A DNA stretch of 64,000 bases from the sequence record OR699282.2; one strand, written 5' to 3'. Under the pieces are notes generated by a model. It was not told where the DNA came from. It searched no databases and saw only the letters and a list, made by a program, of their open reading frames with translations. Below are positions 2,507 to 63,027 of this stretch, one piece after another; position 1 is the stretch's first letter; every line of letters starts with the position of its first letter. The DNA is from Escherichia phage BAU.Micro_ELP-22. A program made the translations under genes and the position numbers.

Positions 2507-2746
2507 ATGGCAAAATCAAAAATGTTCTTAGGTCACAAAAACAAAACTCATTGGAATGTAAGCCTGTGGATTAATAACGATGAGGGATTGTATCGGTTGG
2601 CCCTGGATTTTATTAACGACAACACTAATCGCAATGATGCGGCCCGTCATATGATGTTATTTTTAGAACAGACTGGACAAGATAAAACACCGGACGGATT
2701 CAAATATAGCACTACTGCGATCCGTGCGGCGATGGTTGGAATGTAA
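2507..2746 (+). CDS. hypothetical protein, early paralog family A (79 aa)
   Basis: Track ORF 2468 trimmed to ATG 2507 (SD AAGAGGA); paralog of 4620..4859 (GHKNKTHWNVSLWINN ... TPDGFKYSTTAIRAAMVGM). Confidence 0.7.
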   Translation: MAKSKMFLGHKNKTHWNVSLWINNDEGLYRLALDFINDNTNRNDAARHMMLFLEQTGQDKTPDGFKYSTTAIRAAMVGM

Positions 2747-3451: not shown

Positions 3452-3530
3452 TTGACTTATTTTGTCAGTACTGGCATAATGTATTCATTGGCAGATAAGC
3501 CGTAGCCCATAGGGTGCGGGAGTGTATCTA
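3452..3530 (+). repeat. Repeated intergenic element, type A (promoter-like + conserved GCCCAyAGGGTGC segment)
   Basis: TTGACT 3452-3457, CATAAT 3475-3480, then CATTG..AGATA..TAGCCCATAGGGTGCGGGAGTGTATCT; related copies at 10639, 14687, 17668, 19931. Confidence 0.6.
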
Positions 3531-3848: not shown

Positions 3849-4537
3849 ATGAAAACTATCACTACTACTACTTTCGTTATGGATTTTTCTGAATTGAACG
3901 CAGAACAAAAAACGTCAGCTATCGAACTGGTTCGGGAACGTGAAAAAAACTCAAACGACATTTTTCTGAATTGAACGCAGAACAAAAAACGTCAGCTATC
4001 GAACTGGTTCGGGAACGTGAAAAAAACTCAAACGACAATTATTTTTCTGAAAGTGAAATTGAATACTATAAAGAAACAGTACTACCGGAATATGGCATTA
4101 ATGACGCTGAAATACAATTCAGTGGTTTTTGGTCCCAGGGTGACGGTGCATCAATCAGTACTGACCACGTTGACGCAGTGAAGTTTTTACGCAAGGTAAG
4201 AGCATTAACTAAGTATCGCTCAATCCGTCACTTGCTGAATGAAGATGATTTGGCGATGAGTGTAAAGCGTTCGCACTCCCACTACTCGCATGAGAATACT
4301 GTAAGCGGGTACATTGAATCGGCTTACACTGATTTAACCGCAAAACAAGAAACGTTAGTTAATGAGCTTGAGGAACTACTCACTGAAACTATTCGTGAAT
4401 TGTCCCGCAAGTTGTACCGTGATTTAGAGAATGCATATGAGGATCAATTCACTACTGAAAACATTACGGCACTGATTGAGGGTAACGAGTATCAATTCAA
4501 TGTTATTGATGGCGTAGTGGAATCAATCGAATATTAA
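3849..4537 (+). pseudogene. Acidic hypothetical protein gene disrupted by a 77-bp perfect tandem duplication
   Basis: ATG 3849; units 3884-3960 and 3961-4037 identical; 77 is not a multiple of 3, so frame from 3849 stops at 3972-3974 and the remainder (3971..4537) lacks an ATG; removing one unit restores one ORF. Confidence 0.7.
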
Positions 4538-4619: not shown

Positions 4620-4859
4620 ATGGCTAGTACTAAAACTTACAACGGGCACAAAAACAAAACTCATTGGAATGTAAGCCTTTGGATTAATAACGGTGAGTCA
4701 TTGTATCGGCTTGCTCAAAGTTGCATCGCACAAAGTAGAACTAAAGATATTGCAGCGGAATGTATGTACCGCAGATTAAAAGCCAACGGTACTACTACAA
4801 CGCCGGACGGATTCAAATATAGCACTACTGCGATCCGTGCGGCGATGGTTGGAATGTAA
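4620..4859 (+). CDS. hypothetical protein, early paralog family A (79 aa)
   Basis: ATG 4620, SD GAGGA; paralog of 2507..2746. Confidence 0.7.
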   Translation: MASTKTYNGHKNKTHWNVSLWINNGESLYRLAQSCIAQSRTKDIAAECMYRRLKANGTTTTPDGFKYSTTAIRAAMVGM

Positions 4860-10638: not shown

Positions 10639-10717
10639 TTGACTCCGGTCAGCCATTTTGCTATTATATATTCATTGAGAGATAGCTCACTAGCCCACAG
10701 GGTGCAGGAGTGTATCT
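10639..10717 (+). repeat. Repeated intergenic element, type A
   Basis: TTGACTCCGGTCAG..TATTATAT then CATTGAGAGATAGCTCACTAGCCCACAGGGTGCAGGAGTGTATCT. Confidence 0.6.
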
Positions 10718-10766: not shown

Positions 10767-10830
10767 AGTACTTGCAAACTATCTCAATAAGCGTATAATG
10801 TTTTACATCGCAAGGGGAAACGGTTTCCCC
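10767..10830 (+). promoter_or_regulatory. PeSL-like promoter cassette
   Basis: AGTACT 10767-10772, TTGCAA 10772-10777, TATAAT 10794-10799, hairpin GGGGAAACGGTTTCCCC 10814-10830. Confidence 0.7.
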
Positions 10831-10850
10831 TAGTAATAAGGAAACGAATC

Positions 10851-11192
10851 ATGACTATCTCAATTGCTCAATCTAACTTTGAAAATGAAATCATCGCCCA
10901 GGCACTGCGTTTAAATGATGGTCGGGCCGAAATCAATTACGGTTTCAATTCAGGCGGTTGTGAAAAATATCAGTACTTTGTAACGGCTGATGGCGGTGTC
11001 CTGGGTATCAATACAGTTATTGTAAACATCCAAAAAATTAATTTCAATGATCCAGACGATAGCCAGTTTTACATCACTGGCGTAGACGTGAACTATGAGG
11101 ATGACTCACTAACTGATGATCACACTGGTGAGCGGTTAGAAAGTGCATACGGTGAAGATGATTATCAGTCCGGTCCAGAAGATTTCGAATAA
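10851..11192 (+). CDS. acidic hypothetical protein (113 aa) with D/E-rich C-terminal tail
   Basis: ATG 10851; C-terminal third strongly acidic (DDSLTDDHTGERLESAYGEDDYQSGPEDFE). Confidence 0.7.
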   Translation: MTISIAQSNFENEIIAQALRLNDGRAEINYGFNSGGCEKYQYFVTADGGVLGINTVIVNIQKINFNDPDDSQFYITGVDVNYEDDSLTDDHTGERLESAYGEDDYQSGPEDFE

Positions 11193-12639: not shown

Positions 12640-12897
12640 ATGGCTGTAGGATTCGCGAAAGATGGGGCCGAACAAGACGAGATTAACGCAGTGATTCAGG
12701 CTGCCGTTAACCACGCTAGAAAGCAAATTAACGCACAAATAGAATCACTGATACATTGCCTCGACTGCGGCGATATAATCCCTGAGAAACGACGCCAGGC
12801 CGTTAAGGGATGTAAGTACTGCATAACTTGCCAGGAGGATCATGATAGTACTTTTAAACGTCCCCCGCGTAATTGTTGGCATAGATCTATGAGATAA
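12640..12897 (+). CDS. TraR/DksA-family C4 zinc-finger protein (85 aa)
   Basis: C-x2-C...C-x2-C (CLDCGDIIPEKRRQAVKGCKYCITC) C-terminal zinc-finger arrangement typical of TraR/DksA; SD GAGG. Confidence 0.7.
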   Translation: MAVGFAKDGAEQDEINAVIQAAVNHARKQINAQIESLIHCLDCGDIIPEKRRQAVKGCKYCITCQEDHDSTFKRPPRNCWHRSMR

Positions 12898-12961: not shown

Positions 12962-13318
12962 ATGGGAATACAACATATCACGCGTACTACTGACAATGGC
13001 GAGATCACTGGCTATCAAGTACAGGGCAAAGTAGCACAATTGCAGTACTGGTTTGTTAAACGTGGAATCATTGCACCGGATCTTGATTATGACCGTGTAG
13101 CGTTTATTGATTCTCTTTATGTTGATCCTGATAGTCGGGGCAATGGTGAAGGTAACGAATTAATGAATGCCTTTATCGATGCCGCCGATGATTCAGATTG
13201 TATCATCTTAGAATGCGATACGGGAGAAGATAACGCCTTTAATCTTAAAGAATGGTACGAAGGTTTCGGATTCGAGGTATTGATAGATAGTGAATATCCT
13301 ATCATGATTTTATCATAG
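12962..13318 (+). CDS. GNAT-family N-acetyltransferase (118 aa)
   Basis: IDSLYVDPDSRGNGEGNELMNAFIDAA matches the GNAT acetyl-CoA binding motif (V-x-P-x-x-R-G-x-G); SD GAGGA. Confidence 0.65.
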   Translation: MGIQHITRTTDNGEITGYQVQGKVAQLQYWFVKRGIIAPDLDYDRVAFIDSLYVDPDSRGNGEGNELMNAFIDAADDSDCIILECDTGEDNAFNLKEWYEGFGFEVLIDSEYPIMILS

Positions 13319-17064: not shown

Positions 17065-17649
17065 ATGCGTAATTATACTAAATTCATCCGTACCCTGTCA
17101 GAAATGGAAACCAACAAAGAGATCCTTTCAGCTTGTCGGTTAGCTGGCCTGGAGATCATCGGTGCTGGTTCTTCCCGTATAGTTTTCGCTTTAAATGATC
17201 GGTTAGTGATTAAGGTCGCGAATTGTGATGCGGGTGTAGAACAAAATGAAACTGAATGTAAGGTATGGAATTTTTTAGACTATGACCGCCCTCAGTTGAA
17301 ACAGTACTTTGCAAAGGTGCATATGCATTTATGCGATCCTGATAATATGTTTATCGTTATGGATCGGTTGAGTACTGCAAGCAAAGGCAGTGTGAAGCAC
17401 GTAAACGCGTGCAATGAATTAAAGTACAATATTAAACGTAATGCAATCGAACGCCAGCACCGCTTTGCTGATGCACTACAACACGTTGATGATACATTAT
17501 CAACACTAACGATAAGAGATATCAGAAAACAGAATATCGGCCAGGATCGTAATGGACTTATTAAAGTACTTGATTACGGTTTAACCAGCAATATCTGGAA
17601 TCAGTACTATAAAAAGCGTGATGTGGCAGCAAGTAAGGTAACACGATAA
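17065..17649 (+). CDS. minimal Ser/Thr protein kinase-like protein (194 aa)
   Basis: Track ORF 17008 trimmed to ATG 17065 (SD AAGGAG, 8 nt); Gly-rich loop GAGSSRIVF, Lys in VIKVAN, catalytic-loop-like RDIRKQNIG, DFG-like LDYG. Confidence 0.65.
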   Translation: MRNYTKFIRTLSEMETNKEILSACRLAGLEIIGAGSSRIVFALNDRLVIKVANCDAGVEQNETECKVWNFLDYDRPQLKQYFAKVHMHLCDPDNMFIVMDRLSTASKGSVKHVNACNELKYNIKRNAIERQHRFADALQHVDDTLSTLTIRDIRKQNIGQDRNGLIKVLDYGLTSNIWNQYYKKRDVAASKVTR

Positions 17650-21255: not shown

Positions 21256-21505
21256 TGCGTAAAGGGATCTAGTACTGATTCAGAAAAAAGTCAAGGCGTT
21301 TTTTAAATTATGCGTTAAAAAAATGCATAGGTAATCCCTTGACTTTTTTGAAATAAAAGGGATTGGACTATGGCAAAATGCGTAGGGGGCTAAAGGGCGG
21401 GTAACCTTTAGCGACTTCGATAAAGGGGTATTACGAATAAAATGTTATTGATTTTTTATACGAATCGTATATTATAGGATTGATATTATTTTTAATGGAG
21501 TCCCT
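21256..21505. promoter_or_regulatory. Boundary intergenic region with nested inverted repeats; probable array promoter
   Basis: AAAAAAGTCAAGG (21283-21296) / CCTTGACTTTTTT (21337-21350); GCTAAAGG..CCTTTAGC hairpin near 21388-21412; TTGATT 21448-21453 plus TATTAT-like -10. Confidence 0.45.
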
Positions 21506-21703
21506 ATGCGTATTTTAACTAAAGAACAGCACCACGAAAGACTTATCAATAACATGGCTATGATAATGTATAAGTCCCATGACCGTGGTATTGCCTATAA
21601 GCGTGAATTAATTATGGCACTATTCATTGGAACTAACTTTCAGGAAAGGTATGTCAACGATTGGATTTGGTATTTAATTGAAGATATAACGAGTAAACTA
21701 TGA
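21506..21703 (+). CDS. small tandem family F1 paralog (65 aa)
   Basis: ATG 21506, SD GGAG; C-terminal FIGTNFQERYV..WI..LI..I core. Confidence 0.65.
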   Translation: MRILTKEQHHERLINNMAMIMYKSHDRGIAYKRELIMALFIGTNFQERYVNDWIWYLIEDITSKL

Positions 21704-21900
21704 AAATGCGTATTTTAAATAAAGAAGAATATCAATCACTGTTACGTAAAAACTTCACAAAGATTTATAATACAGACACACACGTAGAACGAATGGAGTT
21801 ATACCTTTTGATTACTTTGGGAACTAACTATCAGGAAAGATGGGTGATTCAATATATGGATACATTGAAAAATAAAATATTGTCCACGAGGAAACAATGA
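21700..21900 (+). CDS. F1 paralog (66 aa)
   Basis: ATGA stop/start overlap; LGTNYQERWV core. Confidence 0.65.
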   Translation: MKMRILNKEEYQSLLRKNFTKIYNTDTHVERMELYLLITLGTNYQERWVIQYMDTLKNKILSTRKQ

Positions 21901-22106
21901 AAACTATAACACGAACCCAATCATACGGTCTTATCTTGAAATACATGGACTTAATGGTGGATATCAGCAAAGACCTTCCTAAAACTGAAATTGAAGTTGC
22001 AAGAGCAGAGATCCGCATGTTGGCTGTACTGAACACAAACCATCAGGAAGATTATGTTGAAGAATGGATTCGATTTTTAATAGAAGATATTAAGAGTAAA
22101 CTATGA
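21897..22106 (+). CDS. F1 paralog (69 aa)
   Basis: ATGA overlap; LNTNHQEDYV core. Confidence 0.65.
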   Translation: MKTITRTQSYGLILKYMDLMVDISKDLPKTEIEVARAEIRMLAVLNTNHQEDYVEEWIRFLIEDIKSKL

Positions 22107-22318
22107 TTATTATAGAAAACTCATATCAATATACTGAACGCATCGCTGCCAGACAACTTGAAATCCTCATAATATACGAAGAGACTTCTGATTTAAACTT
22201 AGCCGAGGTATTGGAAAATGATATACTATTGGGTGCATTCTTAGGAACAGACTATCAGAAGTATTATGAGGAAAAGTATTTGTCATCTCTTGAGAAATAT
22301 ATCAGGAGCAAATTATGA
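22103..22318 (+). CDS. F1 paralog (71 aa)
   Basis: ATGA overlap; LGTDYQKYY core. Confidence 0.65.
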   Translation: MIIIENSYQYTERIAARQLEILIIYEETSDLNLAEVLENDILLGAFLGTDYQKYYEEKYLSSLEKYIRSKL

Positions 22319-22527
22319 TTTTTTTAACACCAGAAGAATATAAGAAACGTTTCAATTCCGCACAGGGTGAAATCTTACTTATATACCTTTCAAATGCAGA
22401 CCTTAACTTATCAAGGGTATTAGAAAAAGATTTACTTATGGGTGCATTCCTTGATACAGACTTTCAGGTGTATTATGTAGGGGAATACTTAATTGCACTT
22501 CAGAATTATATCAGGAGTAAACTATGA
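22315..22527 (+). CDS. F1 paralog (70 aa)
   Basis: ATGA overlap; LDTDFQVYYV core; close to 22103..22318. Confidence 0.65.
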   Translation: MIFLTPEEYKKRFNSAQGEILLIYLSNADLNLSRVLEKDLLMGAFLDTDFQVYYVGEYLIALQNYIRSKL

Positions 22528-22742
22528 AACATTTAAGTAACTCCGAGAAGAATAAAATTATCGTTGCTGCAATAAACAAATATTTTACACTTCCTCACAC
22601 AGAAGGTTTATGTGTAAGGGAACACAGGATAAACACCACCGATATACGCATGATGGCTGTACTGGGGACGAACTTTCAGGAAGAGTATGTTGTTGCACAC
22701 ATAGTTGCCCTCACTGATCTAATAAGGGACAAATGTAAATGA
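22524..22742 (+). CDS. F1 paralog (72 aa)
   Basis: ATGA overlap; LGTNFQEEYV core. Confidence 0.65.
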   Translation: MKHLSNSEKNKIIVAAINKYFTLPHTEGLCVREHRINTTDIRMMAVLGTNFQEEYVVAHIVALTDLIRDKCK

Positions 22743-22996
22743 AACACTTAACTGATGATGAATTTGAAACTATAATTCGTAAACTAACCCCCATCACAAG
22801 GATAGTCTACGGTGACCCCAGCCTTACATGGAACCAAATGCGAGCTAAAGTTAATGAGCTATGGTTGCTGTACTTTATGGGGACTCAATATCAAGATAAG
22901 TTTTGCACAGAATATATCGAACAATTAACGAATGTTATACAGGATAAACTAGATGATTATTTGCTCACAAAACATGAAGACTTTATCAGGAGTTGA
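22739..22996 (+). CDS. F1 paralog (85 aa) with C-terminal extension
   Basis: ATGA overlap; MGTQYQDKF core; stop displaced so the reading frame runs into the next gene. Confidence 0.6.
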   Translation: MKHLTDDEFETIIRKLTPITRIVYGDPSLTWNQMRAKVNELWLLYFMGTQYQDKFCTEYIEQLTNVIQDKLDDYLLTKHEDFIRS

Positions 22997-23225
22997 GTAT
23001 CAAACTGCCCTATTCTCTTTAATCCATGCCCTTAGAAAAAACAATGCCTTATATGGTGCACCTGAAGTGGATGTTATCAACGGTGAACTTTATCTTATGA
23101 AATTCATTGGAACAAACTATCAAGATCTGTTCATTCAACGATACTTATCAGCATTAAGAAACCAAATCCAATATAAAACCCAGAGAGCCAAAAAAGAATG
23201 GAATAAACAATGCGACACAGACTAA
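22953..23225 (+). CDS. F1 paralog (90 aa; start uncertain, alt ATG 22974)
   Basis: IGTNYQDLFI core. Confidence 0.6.
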   Translation: MIICSQNMKTLSGVEYQTALFSLIHALRKNNALYGAPEVDVINGELYLMKFIGTNYQDLFIQRYLSALRNQIQYKTQRAKKEWNKQCDTD

Positions 23226-23458
23226 ATCACAAAATGTATTGTAAACTATTACAGACACTGGCACAGAAACACTATGACACGGTATCTGGAATATTACCCT
23301 ATGATATCATGCGTTTACTTCACTGTGAGGCCGAGATGCTTGTACTGATGACAGGCACTGATAAAAACGCAATTGCCAAATCAATAGATATGTTCATCGA
23401 AGCACACTGCCAACACATGAGAACCGAAATCTGGAGGAAAGAGAATGATAATCCTTAA
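23210..23458 (+). CDS. F1 paralog, divergent (82 aa; start uncertain)
   Basis: MTGTDKNAIAKSIDMFI core variant. Confidence 0.55.
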   Translation: MRHRLNHKMYCKLLQTLAQKHYDTVSGILPYDIMRLLHCEAEMLVLMTGTDKNAIAKSIDMFIEAHCQHMRTEIWRKENDNP

Positions 23459-23660
23459 TGAGTATCAGTATCATTGGAGGTTACAAACTATCAAATCAAA
23501 AGTGTATAGTATTGTGTTAAACAAATCTATTGCACAAGAGGACAAATGTGTTATAATAGCTGAAATGAAGTTGGGTGCTTTCGTAGGGACAAACTATCAA
23601 AACATCTACACTGACGTATTGTTAAGTGCCTTACGTAACAAGGTGGTATCCAAAATATGA
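23445..23660 (+). CDS. F1 paralog (71 aa)
   Basis: VGTNYQNIY core. Confidence 0.65.
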   Translation: MIILNEYQYHWRLQTIKSKVYSIVLNKSIAQEDKCVIIAEMKLGAFVGTNYQNIYTDVLLSALRNKVVSKI

Positions 23661-23875
23661 GAAATTTACAAGGCTTTGAATACATCAGACTCCTGAAAAC
23701 ATGTGGAAGCAGAAGGAGAATGATATCAAGCGATAAGAGCATCCAAGCTAACCTTAAGCACGCACTAGTAACTGAACTCTATGTAGGTGCACTCTTAGGC
23801 ACAAACTATCAACAAATGTATGTAGATCTATGGATTGACGCTCTACAGAAAGAGGTTAAAAGTAAATGCAAATGA
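23657..23875 (+). CDS. F1 paralog (72 aa)
   Basis: ATGA overlap; LGTNYQQMYV core. Confidence 0.65.
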   Translation: MRNLQGFEYIRLLKTCGSRRRMISSDKSIQANLKHALVTELYVGALLGTNYQQMYVDLWIDALQKEVKSKCK

Positions 23876-24084
23876 TTAATTTAAGTAAAGACGAATTTTA
23901 TGTTATACTGGCGAAAACTTATCCAGCACGTAAGGCCGTTTATGATAGTCACATTATTGAACCCTCAAAGAAGTTGATTTTAGTAAATGAGATAAAGATG
24001 CTTTCAGTCTTAGGAACAAACTATCAAGAGAATGCTGTACTGATGTTAATTGATGCCCTCCAGAGAGAGGTTAAACGTAAATGA
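23866..24084 (+). CDS. F1 paralog (72 aa)
   Basis: LGTNYQENAV core. Confidence 0.65.
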   Translation: MQMINLSKDEFYVILAKTYPARKAVYDSHIIEPSKKLILVNEIKMLSVLGTNYQENAVLMLIDALQREVKRK

Positions 24085-24311
24085 AAATGATTAATTTAAC
24101 TTACCATGAATATCAAAAACGTTTAAATGCATCCAGAGATATAAGGATTCAAATATTCAATAACAAAAAATTGAAACCTGATACCAGAAGAATCAAAATC
24201 ATAGAAGCCGTGTTGTGTAACTTCCTAGGGACTAACTATCAGGAAGGTAAGGTAGAAAACTATCTTATAGAACTCATGAATAGTATTGAAAATAAATGTA
24301 AGGGTAATTAA
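24081..24311 (+). CDS. F1 paralog (76 aa)
   Basis: ATGA overlap; LGTNYQEGKV core. Confidence 0.65.
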   Translation: MKMINLTYHEYQKRLNASRDIRIQIFNNKKLKPDTRRIKIIEAVLCNFLGTNYQEGKVENYLIELMNSIENKCKGN

Positions 24312-24312
24312 C

Positions 24313-24552
24313 ATGAAAATGATTAAATTATCTCAAGCAAAATATAAAGAACGCCTGGTGAAAATTGCACCTGGACTTAATGAAATCCATCACGGAGAAG
24401 TCATTAAACACGGAAATAAGATGATTATGAAACTTGAGTTAAAGGTGGGTGCATTCATAGGAACAAACTATCAGGAGTATTATGTAGATGAATACATAAT
24501 CGCACTTAAGAGATACATTGGAAGAAAACTATATATACAAACTAAAGAATAG
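24313..24552 (+). CDS. F1 paralog (79 aa)
   Basis: Track ORF 24286 trimmed to ATG 24313; IGTNYQEYYV core; shares about 50-bp junction repeat with next gene. Confidence 0.6.
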   Translation: MKMIKLSQAKYKERLVKIAPGLNEIHHGEVIKHGNKMIMKLELKVGAFIGTNYQEYYVDEYIIALKRYIGRKLYIQTKE

Positions 24553-24581
24553 TATTGAAAATAAATGTAAGGGTATTTAAC

Positions 24582-24845
24582 ATGAAAATGATTAATTTAA
24601 GTAAAGATGAATATACCGAGCGTATGACAAAAATTACGCACAAACGTAATACAATCTATCACAACCCAGAAATTCAACACAGTAAGAAAATGATTATGAT
24701 GCGTGAGTTAAAGATGGGTGTATTCTTAGGAACAAACTATCAAGATACAGAAGTAAATCGCTTAATCGCGGAGTTACTACTGGAAATCAGAGGTAAGCTG
24801 TACTTTCATCAAATGACCCAACCACTGAGGTGTACTGATCGATGA
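24582..24845 (+). CDS. F1 paralog (87 aa)
   Basis: Track ORF 24555 trimmed to ATG 24582; LGTNYQDTEV core. Confidence 0.6.
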   Translation: MKMINLSKDEYTERMTKITHKRNTIYHNPEIQHSKKMIMMRELKMGVFLGTNYQDTEVNRLIAELLLEIRGKLYFHQMTQPLRCTDR

Positions 24846-25093
24846 ATGCGATGAATATTGTGAATAACATCAGATTAGCAGAAAGATTTGATAGAATTGG
24901 GGAAGCACTGAGAAGATACGATAAAGAATATGGTCATTTGAGCTTTTCTATAGAAAAGAGATATGAACTTGAAGCAGAGTTTAAAATGCAGAGTCTCTTA
25001 GGCACACAGTATCAAAACCAATATATTCAAACTTGGATTGATTGTTTAATCCAGACAATTTACGTAAGAAACATTAAATGCAAAATGAAATGA
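24842..25093 (+). CDS. F1 paralog (83 aa)
   Basis: ATGA overlap; LGTQYQNQYI core. Confidence 0.65.
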   Translation: MNAMNIVNNIRLAERFDRIGEALRRYDKEYGHLSFSIEKRYELEAEFKMQSLLGTQYQNQYIQTWIDCLIQTIYVRNIKCKMK

Positions 25094-25332
25094 TATACTT
25101 AACACATGATGAGTTAACAGAAAGACTAGATAAATCCAAAAGACTTACAAATAAACTTCCTCACAACACAAATCAAACCCCAGCAGAAAGGAGTGCAGAA
25201 GTTTTATTCCAAAGATTACCATACCTTCTTGGAACTGATAGGCAAGAGTATCACATTGAACGTATAATTAAATATCTCAAAATTACTATTAAGGAAAAAG
25301 TAAATGCAAATGAAATACTTAACAGACGATGA
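25078..25332 (+). CDS. F1 paralog (84 aa; start uncertain)
   Basis: LGTDRQEYHI core; close paralog of 25304..25555. Confidence 0.6.
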   Translation: MQNEMIYLTHDELTERLDKSKRLTNKLPHNTNQTPAERSAEVLFQRLPYLLGTDRQEYHIERIIKYLKITIKEKVNANEILNRR

Positions 25333-25555
25333 GTTAAAAGAACGACTAATTAAATCCAGAAAACTTACAAATCAACTTCCAAACGACACAAACAAGTCAC
25401 ATGCCGAAAGGAGTGCAGAAGTTTTATACATTCAACTCATGTACTTTCTTGGCACTGACAGACAAGAGTATTACATTGAAAGTATGCTTCGATATCTTAA
25501 ATTCTCTATAAAGGAAAAGATACATGCTCAAGAATTTAAAAATCCTAACAGTTAA
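25304..25555 (+). CDS. F1 paralog (83 aa; start uncertain)
   Basis: LGTDRQEYYI core; shares HAERSAEVL with previous gene. Confidence 0.6.
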   Translation: MQMKYLTDDELKERLIKSRKLTNQLPNDTNKSHAERSAEVLYIQLMYFLGTDRQEYYIESMLRYLKFSIKEKIHAQEFKNPNS

Positions 25556-25766
25556 TGAATATCATACGATTGTAATGAAAACTAATAGTGCAATTTCTAA
25601 AAAATCAAACCCCAAGTACATACTGGAACACACATTTGAAGAACGTCAATTAGCTTTAGTTGAAGCAAAACTTCTTGCACTCCTAGGAACAAACTATCAA
25701 GAAGAATACATCAGAAAACTAATATACCTTTTAACTAAACATATAAGAAAAAGAAAAAATGCATGA
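25524..25766 (+). CDS. F1 paralog (80 aa)
   Basis: LGTNYQEEYI core. Confidence 0.6.
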   Translation: MLKNLKILTVNEYHTIVMKTNSAISKKSNPKYILEHTFEERQLALVEAKLLALLGTNYQEEYIRKLIYLLTKHIRKRKNA

Positions 25767-25993
25767 AACACTTGACAGATGATGAACATGGGCTTATAGT
25801 AATGGATGTAATCAACATCGAATACAAAAAGTTGATACGCTACCGTTGTTATGAAGATAAGCAACTCGTTCTAGCAGAACAGAAGTTGTTTCGACTCTTA
25901 AACACAAACTTCCAAGCACAATACGAAGAATCGTATATGTACCTTTTGGCGAGGAAAGCAAAAAGAGATTATGAAAATTTTAAGCAAAGGTGA
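25763..25993 (+). CDS. F1 paralog (76 aa)
   Basis: ATGA overlap; LNTNFQAQY core. Confidence 0.65.
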   Translation: MKHLTDDEHGLIVMDVINIEYKKLIRYRCYEDKQLVLAEQKLFRLLNTNFQAQYEESYMYLLARKAKRDYENFKQR

Positions 25994-26186
25994 TTCAGTA
26001 ATATTACTTATAGAGAGTTCAAGTAAATTCTTAAACATAACACTGTCTGATATAGATGAAGATGACAAAGAAGTACTGAGAGCAGATTTAAGAGTACTGT
26101 TACATATCGGAACAAACCTACAAGAAGAATATGTAGAGTGCTACATCAATGAACTTAAAGAATTAGTACTGAGAACATGCAAATGA
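25971..26186 (+). CDS. F1 paralog (71 aa)
   Basis: IGTNLQEEYV core. Confidence 0.6.
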   Translation: MKILSKGDSVILLIESSSKFLNITLSDIDEDDKEVLRADLRVLLHIGTNLQEEYVECYINELKELVLRTCK

Positions 26187-26419
26187 AAATCCTTTCACCA
26201 AGTGAATACCACGAACTATTAAGTAGTTTAATTCTAAAATTGTATATAGCAAAGACCACAGATTTACCTGATGAAGAAAAAAATATTCTAATGAGTGAAA
26301 TCTATGTTAATTCTACCCTAGGGACTAACTATCAAGAATGTAATATTAATGATTACATCAAAGAACTAAAAAGGTTTATCCAATGCAAATGCGAATCATT
26401 ACCGAAACAGAATACCTAA
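26177..26419 (+). CDS. F1 paralog (80 aa)
   Basis: LGTNYQECNI core; close paralog of next gene. Confidence 0.65.
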   Translation: MQMKILSPSEYHELLSSLILKLYIAKTTDLPDEEKNILMSEIYVNSTLGTNYQECNINDYIKELKRFIQCKCESLPKQNT

Positions 26420-26625
26420 CAATCATAAATGGACTGTTTTTGAAGTTATTTGCCATTAACACATCAAAACTACCAGATACTGATAAAATTATTAAGTTAA
26501 ATGAAATCTATGTTCAAGCTACACTGGGAACTAACTATCAAGAAGCCAATGTGTATAATTACATTAATACACTCAAAAGGGTAATAAAATTAAAATGCAC
26601 AAACAGCCAATACACAAACCACTAG
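26383..26625 (+). CDS. F1 paralog (80 aa)
   Basis: LGTNYQEANV core. Confidence 0.65.
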   Translation: MQMRIITETEYLTIINGLFLKLFAINTSKLPDTDKIIKLNEIYVQATLGTNYQEANVYNYINTLKRVIKLKCTNSQYTNH

Positions 26626-26825
26626 GAACAGCAGAATACATTGAACTCATGGCATTACACTTCTCATCCTTTCAGAAACTTAGGCGAGAATCAAAGAATG
26701 ATTTAGAATATACCATCAGAGGTTCCGATTTAAGAATGCTTCTCACCCTAGACACAGATTCCCAAGAGCGATTTGTCAATGAGCATATTAGAGCACTTTT
26801 AATGGAAATTCAAAGTAAACTATGA
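26595..26825 (+). CDS. F1 paralog (76 aa)
   Basis: LDTDSQERFV core. Confidence 0.6.
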   Translation: MHKQPIHKPLGTAEYIELMALHFSSFQKLRRESKNDLEYTIRGSDLRMLLTLDTDSQERFVNEHIRALLMEIQSKL

Positions 26826-27037
26826 AGATAATATCAAACCAAGAGTACTTGGCACTATTCAGGAAGAATAATCACAAATATATGGCACTTGATTCAAGAA
26901 CTGATATAAGTGAACTTGAAAAAAATCTTTTGCGTTCAGATATGATAGTACTGACACTCTTAGGAACACAGCATCAAGAGAGAACTGTTAATTCACACAT
27001 AGGGATTCTTATGCAGATAGTACAGGAAAAGATATGA
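26822..27037 (+). CDS. F1 paralog (71 aa)
   Basis: ATGA overlap; LGTQHQERTV core. Confidence 0.65.
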   Translation: MKIISNQEYLALFRKNNHKYMALDSRTDISELEKNLLRSDMIVLTLLGTQHQERTVNSHIGILMQIVQEKI

Positions 27038-27255
27038 GAATCATAACACAACAAGATATTCTTAAGTTCACAAGGGTTCATGCATCTGAATTTGATGCTA
27101 TATTATCAAAAAGTTACAACAACCCTTATACACAAGATGTACATTACAGTGAATTATGGATGTATATACTTTTAGGTACAAATAAGCAAGAGCAAGCCGT
27201 ACAGAAGTATTTGACAGCTTTACGTGATGCTACTGCTAATGGAGTACATGTTTAA
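27034..27255 (+). CDS. F1 paralog (73 aa)
   Basis: ATGA overlap; LGTNKQEQAV core. Confidence 0.65.
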   Translation: MRIITQQDILKFTRVHASEFDAILSKSYNNPYTQDVHYSELWMYILLGTNKQEQAVQKYLTALRDATANGVHV

Positions 27256-27256
27256 T

Positions 27257-27499
27257 ATGAAAGTACTGACAGAACTAGAAATGTATCATAGATTTAATAA
27301 GTACTATCATTTACTTAAGCCTATACAGAGGATTAAATGTCCATTTGAAGAGAAACAGGTTTTAATCTATGAGCACAAGTTCTTTGTATCATTAGGTACA
27401 GATCAACAAGAGTACTATTTGACGTTGTACTTGATTACATTAATAGATTTAATTCACTATAAAACCAAACAAGCTAATAAAGAGAAATATGAAAACTAA
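27257..27499 (+). CDS. F1 paralog (80 aa)
   Basis: Track ORF 27224 trimmed to ATG 27257; LGTDQQEYYL core. Confidence 0.6.
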   Translation: MKVLTELEMYHRFNKYYHLLKPIQRIKCPFEEKQVLIYEHKFFVSLGTDQQEYYLTLYLITLIDLIHYKTKQANKEKYEN

Positions 27500-27833
27500 T
27501 ATACAACTCAAGGTATATAAATCATTTGAACATACATATATCAAAAGTAGTCTATGTAGAGATGTAATGGATTACAAGGGTAAGCCATTCACAATTACCT
27601 ATGATTCTTATGTTAGTGATTTATATATATCATTTGTTAATTACGAAAATAAAATATACAAGCACGTTGATATTAAAGATTTAAGTACTTTATCACCAGA
27701 GGAATACTTTCAGGAATCATTAGTATGGGATTTAGAGTTTCCTATGCCATTAGTACATAAGATGATAGTACTAATGAAAGAATCTAAACAGGAGCCTAAT
27801 GGTGATTATGAAGAACACACAGTTGAGTATTAA
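27489..27833 (+). CDS. large tandem family F2 paralog (114 aa)
   Basis: PEEYFQESLVWD core followed by short helical C-terminus. Confidence 0.6.
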   Translation: MKTNIQLKVYKSFEHTYIKSSLCRDVMDYKGKPFTITYDSYVSDLYISFVNYENKIYKHVDIKDLSTLSPEEYFQESLVWDLEFPMPLVHKMIVLMKESKQEPNGDYEEHTVEY

Positions 27834-62117: not shown

Positions 62118-62397
62118 TGAAATAAATCTTACAGGATATTTTTTACAAGAATCAATGATTAAATTTAGTGATAAATTTTCAGTACTGGATGGTATCGAAA
62201 TGTGGCATGTCAAACCACTGTTCCACACTTTCAGTAAAGAGCACAAAATGTTATTGACTGAAGCGAGTAAATCAAATAACATATGTGAAATCAAAATTGG
62301 TGTAAATGTCTATAAAGGGATGGTTATCTTTTTTGACAATAACAGCAACTACTTTTATATTGTTAAGGAGCATTACGTTGACAAATACAAATACTAA
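62110..62397 (+). CDS. hypothetical protein (95 aa)
   Basis: Track ORF 62098 (TTG) trimmed to ATG 62110; overlaps upstream gene by 8 nt. Confidence 0.55.
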   Translation: MCDEINLTGYFLQESMIKFSDKFSVLDGIEMWHVKPLFHTFSKEHKMLLTEASKSNNICEIKIGVNVYKGMVIFFDNNSNYFYIVKEHYVDKYKY

Positions 62398-62992
62398 TAC
62401 ATACTTCCGTTATCTTCGCTTAGGTCTTTCCCTACGTCCGATCCGTGGAAAGTGCGATTCACTCGCTGACCTTGACTATGCATATGCATTACATCATGAA
62501 GGTGTACAGTATGTATTGGGTGATTATGGTGAATTTGAAGAAACAAATGACAGTACTGGAATTAATGCTGGTGTAGAAAATCTTAACAACATTGCTAACA
62601 GTTCTCGCCATGACATTGTGTTACAGATTCAAAACTTTATTGAGCAGCACACAGGTAAACGTGTTTGGTGCTATGTCGGTACTGATGCACAAATGTCAAT
62701 TTCATTCGGTAACGATGAAGGATATGTTGCACAGCTTATTATGGATTTTGAATCTGAAGAGAAGTTTTTAGAATTCAAAGAAAAGATTATTCAGTCACTT
62801 GTTGATATGGGTATCCCCGAAGATAAAATGCCAGAAGTTCAAAACATTGATGAATTTGTTTTGATTCCATCTGATGAGAAATATGATGCAATGTTTACTG
62901 CCCTTAATATTCCAGGAGTTATTGTGGAGTACTTTGATGATGGTGATGATAGTATCTATATCGATCTAGATGACGATGACGACGATGAATAA
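62378..62992 (+). CDS. acidic hypothetical protein (204 aa), poly-Asp C-terminus, probable TTG start
   Basis: TTG 62378 preceded by SD AAGGAG at 7 nt; C-terminus DDGDDSIYIDLDDDDDDE. Confidence 0.55.
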   Translation: MTNTNTNTYFRYLRLGLSLRPIRGKCDSLADLDYAYALHHEGVQYVLGDYGEFEETNDSTGINAGVENLNNIANSSRHDIVLQIQNFIEQHTGKRVWCYVGTDAQMSISFGNDEGYVAQLIMDFESEEKFLEFKEKIIQSLVDMGIPEDKMPEVQNIDEFVLIPSDEKYDAMFTALNIPGVIVEYFDDGDDSIYIDLDDDDDDE

Positions 62993-62998
62993 TGTACA

Positions 62999-63027
62999 TA
63001 GCCCGACATAAGTTCGGGCTATTTTTG
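62999..63027 (+). terminator. Rho-independent terminator
   Basis: TAGCCCGA-CATAAGT-TCGGGCTA then TTTTTG. Confidence 0.8.

Follow-up and report, generated by a model that had tools for sequence, protein, structure and literature searches.

The gene at 10851..11192 (+ strand) of Escherichia phage BAU.Micro_ELP-22 is a genuine conserved gene of an Asteriusvirus jumbo phage. It lies in a stretch of 64,000 nucleotides from sequence record OR699282.2, called here the window, and codes for a protein of 113 amino acids that belongs to the phrog_18238/phrog_18452 family. This family is large, uncharacterised and without a Pfam or NCBIfam model or a PDB relative. The 113-residue protein is probably a small acidic early phage accessory protein, of a kind that is common in phages, and a candidate for anti-defence or host take-over.

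The initial annotation had placed this gene together with 62378..62992 and 3849..4537 under a heading of early proteins with acidic tails and proposed them as candidate DNA mimics. The DNA-mimic reading is plausible. The three proteins are unrelated and have been brought together by composition only. They belong to three different PHROG families (phrog_18238, phrog_15575 and phrog_5162, respectively), none of which has a known function, and should not be handled as one class.

Gene 10851..11192 and its acidic product

The gene is an open reading frame that starts at an ATG and ends with a stop codon at 11190-11192. Its expression signals and the two parts of its coding sequence are the following:

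10772..10799, + strand: putative sigma-70-type promoter, TTGCAA, 16 nucleotides, TATAAT, with 10 of 12 consensus matches
10813..10831, + strand: stem-loop in the 5' untranslated region, AGGGGAAA CGG UUUCCCCU
10851..11153, + strand: conserved core, residues 1-101, delimited by the match to phrog_18238 (E = 3e-56), alignments, column frequencies and the AlphaFold2 (AF2) model
11154..11192, + strand: acidic C-terminal tail EDDYQSGPEDFE, residues 102-113, predicted to be disordered, plus the stop codon

The hairpin has a minimum free energy of -11.9 kcal/mol (z = -2.1 versus shuffled sequences) and leaves both the Shine-Dalgarno sequence AAGGA (10838-10842) and the ATG unpaired beside it. The perfect TTGACA-16-TATAAT promoter of the next gene starts about 15 nucleotides past the stop codon.

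Computation of the isoelectric point (pI) and charge, a check that the initial annotation had proposed, gave a strongly negative protein of pI 4.05 with 23 D/E versus 5 K/R and a net charge of -18. Its ending is D/E-dense, as had been claimed: the last 30 residues comprise 12 D/E and 1 K/R (hypergeometric P = 0.003 given the protein's own composition). Among about 155 crude open reading frames of the window these 30 C-terminal residues rank second in acidity (net charge -11), behind those of 62306/62378..62992 (-13) and ahead of a third-placed open reading frame at -8. The AF2 model obtained with the homologue alignment has a confidence score (pLDDT, predicted local distance difference test) of 83, with residues 1-100 ordered (pLDDT 81-94) and residues 104-113 below 50.

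A large family with a conserved domain

The 113-residue protein matches phrog_18238 over its full length and phrog_18452 over residues 30-104 (E = 3e-9), and its distant relatives match the two alike. The 20 close homologues, with 43-96% identity over the alignment, define 21 invariant columns that extend up to ...ESAYG; the orthologues keep a specific motif, NYED...DDHTGE..ESAY, in place of a Cys4 zinc knuckle that about 20% of the relatives have. A profile search of 1.84 billion representatives retrieved 302 proteins (50% clustering), most of them matching only at profile positions about 41-107, and a word-indexed search with broader alignment retrieved at least 3,188 clusters at 90% identity. 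No Pfam domain or informative name was found among these clusters, all of which are named "hypothetical" or bear an uninformative or stray label.

The domain found family-wide is compact and acidic, corresponds to residues 30-101 (~65-70 amino acids) and has the pattern GG(Y)P.Y(F/Y).T.DG..L(S/C)..(A/C)V ... W.(V/I).....(V/I)N(Y/W)ED..L.(C/D)DH(T/C)GE.IESAY(A/G)(E/D), with the variants GG.(P/E).Y at its start, (W/F).(V/I) in its middle and GE.(I/L)ESAY at its end. N81, E83 and Y100 are conserved in 98-99% of the members, G35, D47 and L51 in 97% each, A99 in 94% and H91 in 90%; the polar positions D47, N81, E83, D84, D90 and H91 lie between 83 and 98%. All residues of the family motif (G35, D47, L51, N81, E83, D84, L87, D90, H91, A99 and Y100) are present in the 113-residue protein. 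The short members of the family (n = 228) have a median pI of 4.47 and a median net charge of -10, and 82% of them have a pI below 5.

Cysteine occupies column 52 in 20% of the members, column 55 in 19%, column 89 in 73% and column 92 in 19%. About 20% of the members combine the four in a C-x2-C ... C-D-H-C arrangement, which is probably an ancestral zinc knuckle. The 113-residue protein has G52, T55, D89 and T92 at the corresponding positions and lacks a Cys4 zinc knuckle or ribbon.

The domain is also found within multidomain proteins of 300-830 amino acids. In ten of these relatives Pfam identified no informative fused domain and PHROGs identified only unknown families. In gp005 of Caulobacter phage CcrBL9 (L089:3635-4291), P0114 and P0117 the acidic domain is fused to a C-terminal (W/A).G.N(V/M).G(F/Y)MPD(N/S)(E/P)P module, and in P0085 and P0088 to a phrog_21544 module (LLFDS..G(I/V)YIPQ.F). 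No Pfam family was found for either C-terminal module.

Searches of Pfam, NCBIfam and PADLOC with all three proteins singled out in the window gave nothing above threshold. PDB sequence searches with the single proteins and with two profiles gave matches at chance level only (best profile E = 0.21-0.39, to unrelated proteins). No fold relative of the 113-residue protein was found among solved structures, every solved DNA mimic included.

The acidic tail

The tail evolves fast. Beyond the conserved Tyr100 the close homologues cannot be aligned: the 21 sequences continue for 2-19 residues that are always acid-rich and total 103 D/E versus 7 K/R. Family-wide, the three positions after SAY[AG] are 66-87% acidic and the chain extends for a median of 7 residues past AY. 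The conserved SAY is followed by [AG][ED][DEP][ED], which is kept in high-GC relatives (...SAY[AG][ED][DEP][ED]).

The possibility that acidic tails are a by-product of a 34% GC genome was rejected, as high-GC relatives retain them. Because the tail remains acidic while its length and sequence shift, in both tailed families of the window, its acidity goes beyond chance or AT-rich composition.

Some tails, all of them in the Asteriusvirus subgroup, contain an aromatic residue among acidic ones (PEDFE, LDFF, IWEDE, IFDEDSE). The tail of the 113-residue protein ends in GPEDFE, without a terminal IPF, and most tails of the wider family have no aromatic residue (plain AEDDAE or AEPEE).

Position in the terminal repeat and early expression

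The window represents the left end of an Asteriusvirus genome (PBECO4/121Q-like Escherichia coli jumbo phage), as placed by the coordinates of its relatives. Its GC content is 34.4% and nearly every gene is on the + strand. In megablast the segment 9500-13000 has 92-100% coverage and 93-98% identity to Asteriusvirus phages of 348-384 kb. The homologous stretch of vB_Ec-M-J lies within an annotated direct terminal repeat of 21,525 bp, and that of fEgEco12, at 7.5-11.8 kb of the fEgEco12 record, is also included in the terminal repeat. The fEgEco12 repeat measures 20,993 bp and was confirmed by restriction digestion (PMC13070987), while a repeat of 20,668 bp was assigned to Sharanji by PhageTerm (PMC11895373). 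Location in this ~21-kb direct terminal repeat implies two copies of the gene per packaged genome, one of them in whichever end enters first.

Asteriusviruses encode a sigma factor of their own for later genes (PMC11895373). As this factor serves later genes, the sigma-70 consensus promoters in the repeat suggest immediate-early transcription by the unmodified host polymerase. Given its own TTGCAA-16-TATAAT promoter, its 5' hairpin and its location in the ~21-kb repeat, the 113-residue protein is probably immediate-early. No functional data were found in the literature on Asteriusvirus early transcription, on anti-defence screens with these phages or on the neighbouring DUFs.

Distribution and neighbours of the family

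The family is nearly restricted to viruses. It has 206 tblastn-confirmed loci in IMG/VR, 3 loci in bacterial and archaeal genomes (one genome per species, 185,579 species) and 1 plasmid record. Since plasmid searches gave one match each, the family genes do not strictly count as leading-region genes of plasmids. Among deposited phages the family is present in 120 records, with Escherichia, Vibrio, Caulobacter, Klebsiella, Salmonella, Erwinia, Yersinia and Serratia as hosts, and the relatives altogether span phages of Proteobacteria, Actinobacteria and Planctomycetes.

Where the termini are annotated, the family gene is found inside the terminal repeat in Asteriusvirus, Klebsiella phage fENko-Kae01 and Caulobacter Bertelyvirus. 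In Bertelyvirus, whose members are unrelated jumbo siphophages, the gene is 3.3-4.6 kb from the end and has two copies per record; in Erwinia and Yersinia jumbo phages it is about 5-6 kb from the record start. That jumbo phages without relationship to one another repeatedly have the gene in their terminal repeats is a useful lead. An orthologue is also carried by Tsukamurella tyrosinosolvens "plasmid 13" (NZ_LR134455.1, 147.9-160.2 kb), a non-mobilizable actinobacterial replicon of 264 kb that is dense with small hypothetical genes. The element has a phage-like appearance and may be a jumbo phage-plasmid.

A Pfam scan of 98 neighbours of family genes identified DUF7249 three times, ArdC-N, DUF7192 and beta-clamp-like domains twice each, and ArdA, DUF932, DUF6876, DUF3846 and SprT-like domains once each. 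In two further contexts of distant relatives, ArdC-N occurs together with MPTase-PolyVal, and DUF932 together with an Acb2/Tad1-hairpin gene. For one relative the distance to an Acb2/Tad1-hairpin gene, which is on the opposite strand, is about 7 kb. The repeat in the window contains a pair of DUF7249 genes as well as genes for a DksA/TraR zinc-finger protein and a GNAT acetyltransferase. The presence of DUF7249 genes both in this repeat and beside the family in unrelated IMG/VR contigs (3 of the 98 neighbours) suggests a shared early accessory pool. The neighbourhoods place the family in a pool of small accessory genes that travel with anti-restriction genes, on counts that are small and have no control set.

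The two other acidic proteins

Gene 62378..62992 (+ strand) codes for 204 amino acids from a TTG start. The product ends in ...EYFDDGDDSIYIDLDDDDDDE, which bears out the acidic ending described for it: 12 of its last 20 residues are D/E (P = 7e-5). Its pI is 4.06 and its net charge -30. The mechanical open reading frame starts at ATG 62306; TTG 62378 reads as the better start because AAGGAG is found 7 nucleotides upstream and the homologues have the N-termini MTNTN.../MNTNSN.... The tail is positioned as follows:

62939-62989, + strand: poly-Asp tail of the protein, residues 188-204

The N-terminus of the protein is conserved and basic (NTYFRYLRLGLSLRPIRGK), and its C-terminal poly-D/E tail is conserved in character and variable in length among homologues. 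Only 22 homologues were found, all Asteriusvirus-like, in family phrog_15575. The gene is located about 41 kb beyond the terminal repeat. A promoter-like site with 11/12 consensus matches ends 17 nucleotides before its start and a good terminator is found at 62998-63022; promoter-like sites around 62378 occur at chance frequency (22 found versus 19 expected).

Gene 3849..4537 had been described as interrupted and acidic, which is correct on both counts. A perfect 77-nucleotide tandem duplication (3883-3959/3960-4036, + strand) shifts the frame after codon 37 of this phrog_5162 gene, and the full-length protein cannot be made from the gene as given in the window. Phage Turkey3 and all 30 matching phage records have no duplication and an intact protein of ~203 amino acids. 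Either the duplication arose recently and inactivated the gene, or it is an artefact of sequencing or assembly. The rebuilt protein of 203 amino acids has a pI of 4.59 and a net charge of -19, and its C-terminus is not D/E-enriched (P about 0.5).

The heading of acidic tails thus describes 10851..11192 and 62378..62992 and does not apply to 3849..4537. The term "early" in the same title was an inference and not an observation. It agrees with the terminal-repeat position and sigma-70-type promoters of the genes at 10851 and 3849, a support that the distant gene at 62378 does not have.

Possible functions of the 113-residue protein

We tentatively favour a function of the 113-residue protein as a stoichiometric acidic decoy for a host or defence protein whose basic surface binds nucleic acids. 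This reading fits best because of the acidity of the whole family, the exposed-looking acidic/His motif, the variable polyanionic tail, the immediate-early context and the first-entry position. The host RNA polymerase would transcribe the gene in the first minutes of infection, and the protein would then dock onto the basic, nucleic-acid-binding surface of its host or defence target and block it. The conserved face formed by N81, E83, D84, D90, H91, E94, E97 and Y100 would supply the specific contact, and the floppy acidic tail would add a nucleic-acid-like polyanion competition, the core being independent of the tail. Such a decoy would be DNA-mimic-like in the broad sense, with restriction enzymes as only one candidate target.

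Several observations weigh against the decoy. The Tsukamurella orthologue is 51% identical over 99 residues without gaps, ends in ...AAYA and has no tail; relatives P0014 and P0019 are nearly tailless, with only two residues after the Tyr. The acidic tail is, on comparison of the family members, not essential. About 18% of the short family members are not acidic. The conservation of the motif (His91 90%, Asn81 98%) and the Cys4 site in ~20% of the members look more like a specific binding or metal site than like charge mimicry of a generic kind. The neighbours are highly varied: clustering by blast of 341 of them from 49 viral loci gave no conserved partner gene, the largest cluster comprising 5 loci, and anti-restriction neighbours are few (3 of 98, with no control set).

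A specific modulator of a core host machine (RNA polymerase, replisome or SSB partners, recombination enzymes, a protease) is a possible, if somewhat unlikely, alternative. The protein would act through its NYED...DHTGE...SAY face in host take-over and not in anti-defence, and its acidity would be incidental or tune solubility or affinity. A few residues are very highly conserved among phages that infect Proteobacteria, Actinobacteria and Planctomycetes, which suits a slowly evolving target. The 51% identity across phyla and the centring of conservation on a motif favour the modulator; the immediate-early position beside the DksA/TraR-type zinc-finger and GNAT genes of the same repeat and the aromatic residue in the acidic context of some tails point in the same direction. 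Aromatic tails are, however, limited to the Asteriusvirus subgroup, and acidity throughout the family is unlikely to be incidental. A further alternative is a classical anti-restriction DNA mimic that, like Ocr and ArdA, would take the shape of bent B-DNA, probably as an oligomer, and fill the DNA-binding groove of BREX or type I/III restriction-modification enzymes. The pI of 4.05 and net charge of -18 in an acidic family, the early promoter, the terminal-repeat position and the ArdA and ArdC genes near some distant relatives are in line with this function, and the 51% identity that links the proteins of an E. coli phage and of an actinobacterial element would suit a target as universal as DNA-binding grooves. 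Yet neither homology nor a fold match connects the protein with Ocr, ArdA or another solved mimic, motif-centred conservation and an ancestral Cys4 site are atypical of charge mimics, the domain occurs in multidomain proteins of 300-830 amino acids, the tail is dispensable, and nothing ties the 113-residue protein specifically to restriction. We regard this classical mimic as quite improbable.

The C-x2-C ... C-D-H-C arrangement and the high conservation of D47, N81, E83, D84, D90 and H91 could also belong to a module that binds a metal or a small ligand. It would be a degenerate zinc knuckle or a sponge for signalling molecules, with the conserved Asp, Glu and His as chelators of a cation or as the binding site of a nucleotide-like messenger. 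Known signalling-molecule sponges are small phage proteins of similar size, and one relative of the family is the neighbour, at about 7 kb, of an Acb2/Tad1-hairpin gene. This is very unlikely for the 113-residue protein, which has lost all four Cys positions and for which the fold searches gave no match to Tad1, Tad2, Acb2 or a zinc ribbon. The function of DNA ligase, finally, comes from an inherited annotation of EcMJ_024, CcrBL9 gp005, CcrSC, CcrPW and the phrog_18452 label, which is the whole of its support. The protein has only 113 amino acids and the phrog_18452 profile 98 positions; no Pfam match to a ligase domain, whether adenylation or OB-fold, was obtained for the 113-residue protein, the CcrBL9 protein of 218 amino acids or 20 relatives; the 113-residue sequence has two Lys and no KxDG motif; and no ligase is among the PDB sequence or fold matches. 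The DNA ligase label is refuted for practical purposes, which removes a propagating misannotation of phrog_18452.

The acidic decoy may be extended to the whole family, as a new and widespread group of immediate-early proteins derived from a zinc knuckle and carried in the terminal repeats of unrelated jumbo phages so as to be made ahead of all other gene products. Their targets, across bacterial phyla, would be DNA-binding defences or nucleoid proteins, which they would neutralise. This extension is unlikely. If the family were an anti-defence or take-over factor, a large unnamed domain family would be added to the anti-defence catalogue and a small, portable inhibitor would be at hand. If the 113-residue protein were an ordinary accessory protein, it would be one among hundreds of acidic hypothetical proteins of jumbo phages.

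Other features of the window

A layout of one gene, one promoter and one hairpin is repeated across the first ~21 kb. Most small genes of the terminal repeat (window 1-21000) have their own near-consensus TTGACA-16/17-TATAAT promoter, followed ~12 nucleotides downstream by a GGGGAGAA...TTCTCCCC hairpin (about -13 to -14.5 kcal/mol). The modular arrangement recalls the promoter-early stem-loop cassettes of T4, which mediate gene shuffling. Promoters with this hairpin and the candidate genes near 10851..11192 are positioned as follows:

11207, 13943, 15252, 15521, 18098 and 19626: promoters with GGGGAGAA...TTCTCCCC hairpins after them
12640..12897, terminal repeat: DksA/TraR-type C4 zinc-finger protein
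12962..13318, terminal repeat: GNAT acetyltransferase
17065..17649, terminal repeat: protein of 194 amino acids

The GNAT acetyltransferase is very acidic (pI 4.05) and the protein of 194 amino acids has a weak protein-kinase match (E = 0.004). These two proteins and the DksA/TraR zinc-finger protein are candidate host take-over factors. The DUF7249 genes of the repeat, 2507..2746 and 4620..4859, are a pair of paralogues with an identical C-terminus (...TPDGFKYSTTAIRAAMVGM).

An intergenic element of about 130-150 nucleotides is present in five copies on the + strand, at window positions 3452, 10639, 14677, 17668 and 19931. The copy at 10639 is directly upstream of the promoter of gene 10851..11192. 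Each starts with a palindromic AAAAAAGGGATTGACTCCGGTCAGTCCCTTTGCTATTATATA, terminator-like and promoter-like at once, which is followed by conserved AGCCCACAGGGTGCA...GTGTATCTATTGTATAA...GTACTGAAAAC...AAAAAGTACTTGCA. The element matched no Rfam family, and Rfam and tRNA scans for intergenic RNA were empty. It is a candidate small RNA or regulatory cassette.

Just past the repeat, at about 21500-27500, are more than 20 tandem paralogous genes for proteins of ~70-90 amino acids that have a C-terminal ...GTNYQE.YV... motif in common. Long arrays coding for paralogous acidic proteins of 150-200 amino acids with a common C-terminal ...WYFK....FYLD... extend over about 28000-56000. Both sets of arrays are large lineage-specific gene expansions.

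Comparison with known systems

T7 Ocr (gp0.3) and ArdA are, like the 113-residue protein, small and of pI about 4. The ocr gene is the first T7 gene to enter the cell, and Ocr ends in a disordered acidic tail, EEVEEYEEDEE. Ocr and ArdA are coded in first-entering DNA and expressed by the host RNA polymerase, as would likewise be the case for gene 10851..11192. They are helical, elongated dimers, whereas the AF2 model of the 113-residue protein shows a small domain of mixed alpha/beta structure whose loops are long and ordered; the centring of conservation on a motif and the ancestral Cys4 site set its family further apart from them. No homology or fold similarity was found to the known mimics Ocr, ArdA, Arn, Gam and anti-CRISPR mimics, and the 113-residue protein is not a homologue of Ocr, ArdA or another solved mimic. 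Since DNA mimics share no common fold, missing homology is weak evidence: it lowers the chance that the protein is an Ocr or an ArdA and not that it works like one.

The tails with an aromatic residue in an acidic context are reminiscent of the C-terminal tips of SSB or gp2.5. The acidic tip of SSB is a run of Asp followed by a hydrophobic residue, Pro and Phe (DDDIPF-like), to which the orthologue ends LDFF, IWEDE and IFDEDSE can be compared; the 113-residue protein has no IPF. A likeness to PB1 or beta-grasp proteins comes from a sub-threshold match to the YukD-like ubiquitin fold (Pfam E = 0.11, far below significance). In PB1 domains an acidic motif of the YxDEDGD type (OPCA) binds the basic patch of a partner. 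This likeness is a lead and not a classification.

The pre-early region of T5 is duplicated in its terminal repeat. The T5 first-step-transfer and plasmid leading-region gene sets have in common with the Asteriusvirus repeat many small genes, own promoters and a place in first-entering DNA, together with a richness in proteins of unknown function and in anti-defence functions. No T5 homologue of the 113-residue protein was found among deposited phages, and the analogy would hold for position only, not for mechanism. The leading region, the first part of a plasmid to enter, is enriched in anti-defence genes (PMC11541004). If the family of the 113-residue protein were an anti-defence or take-over factor, the repeats of jumbo phages would be a pre-early cassette comparable to T5 first-step-transfer DNA or plasmid leading regions.

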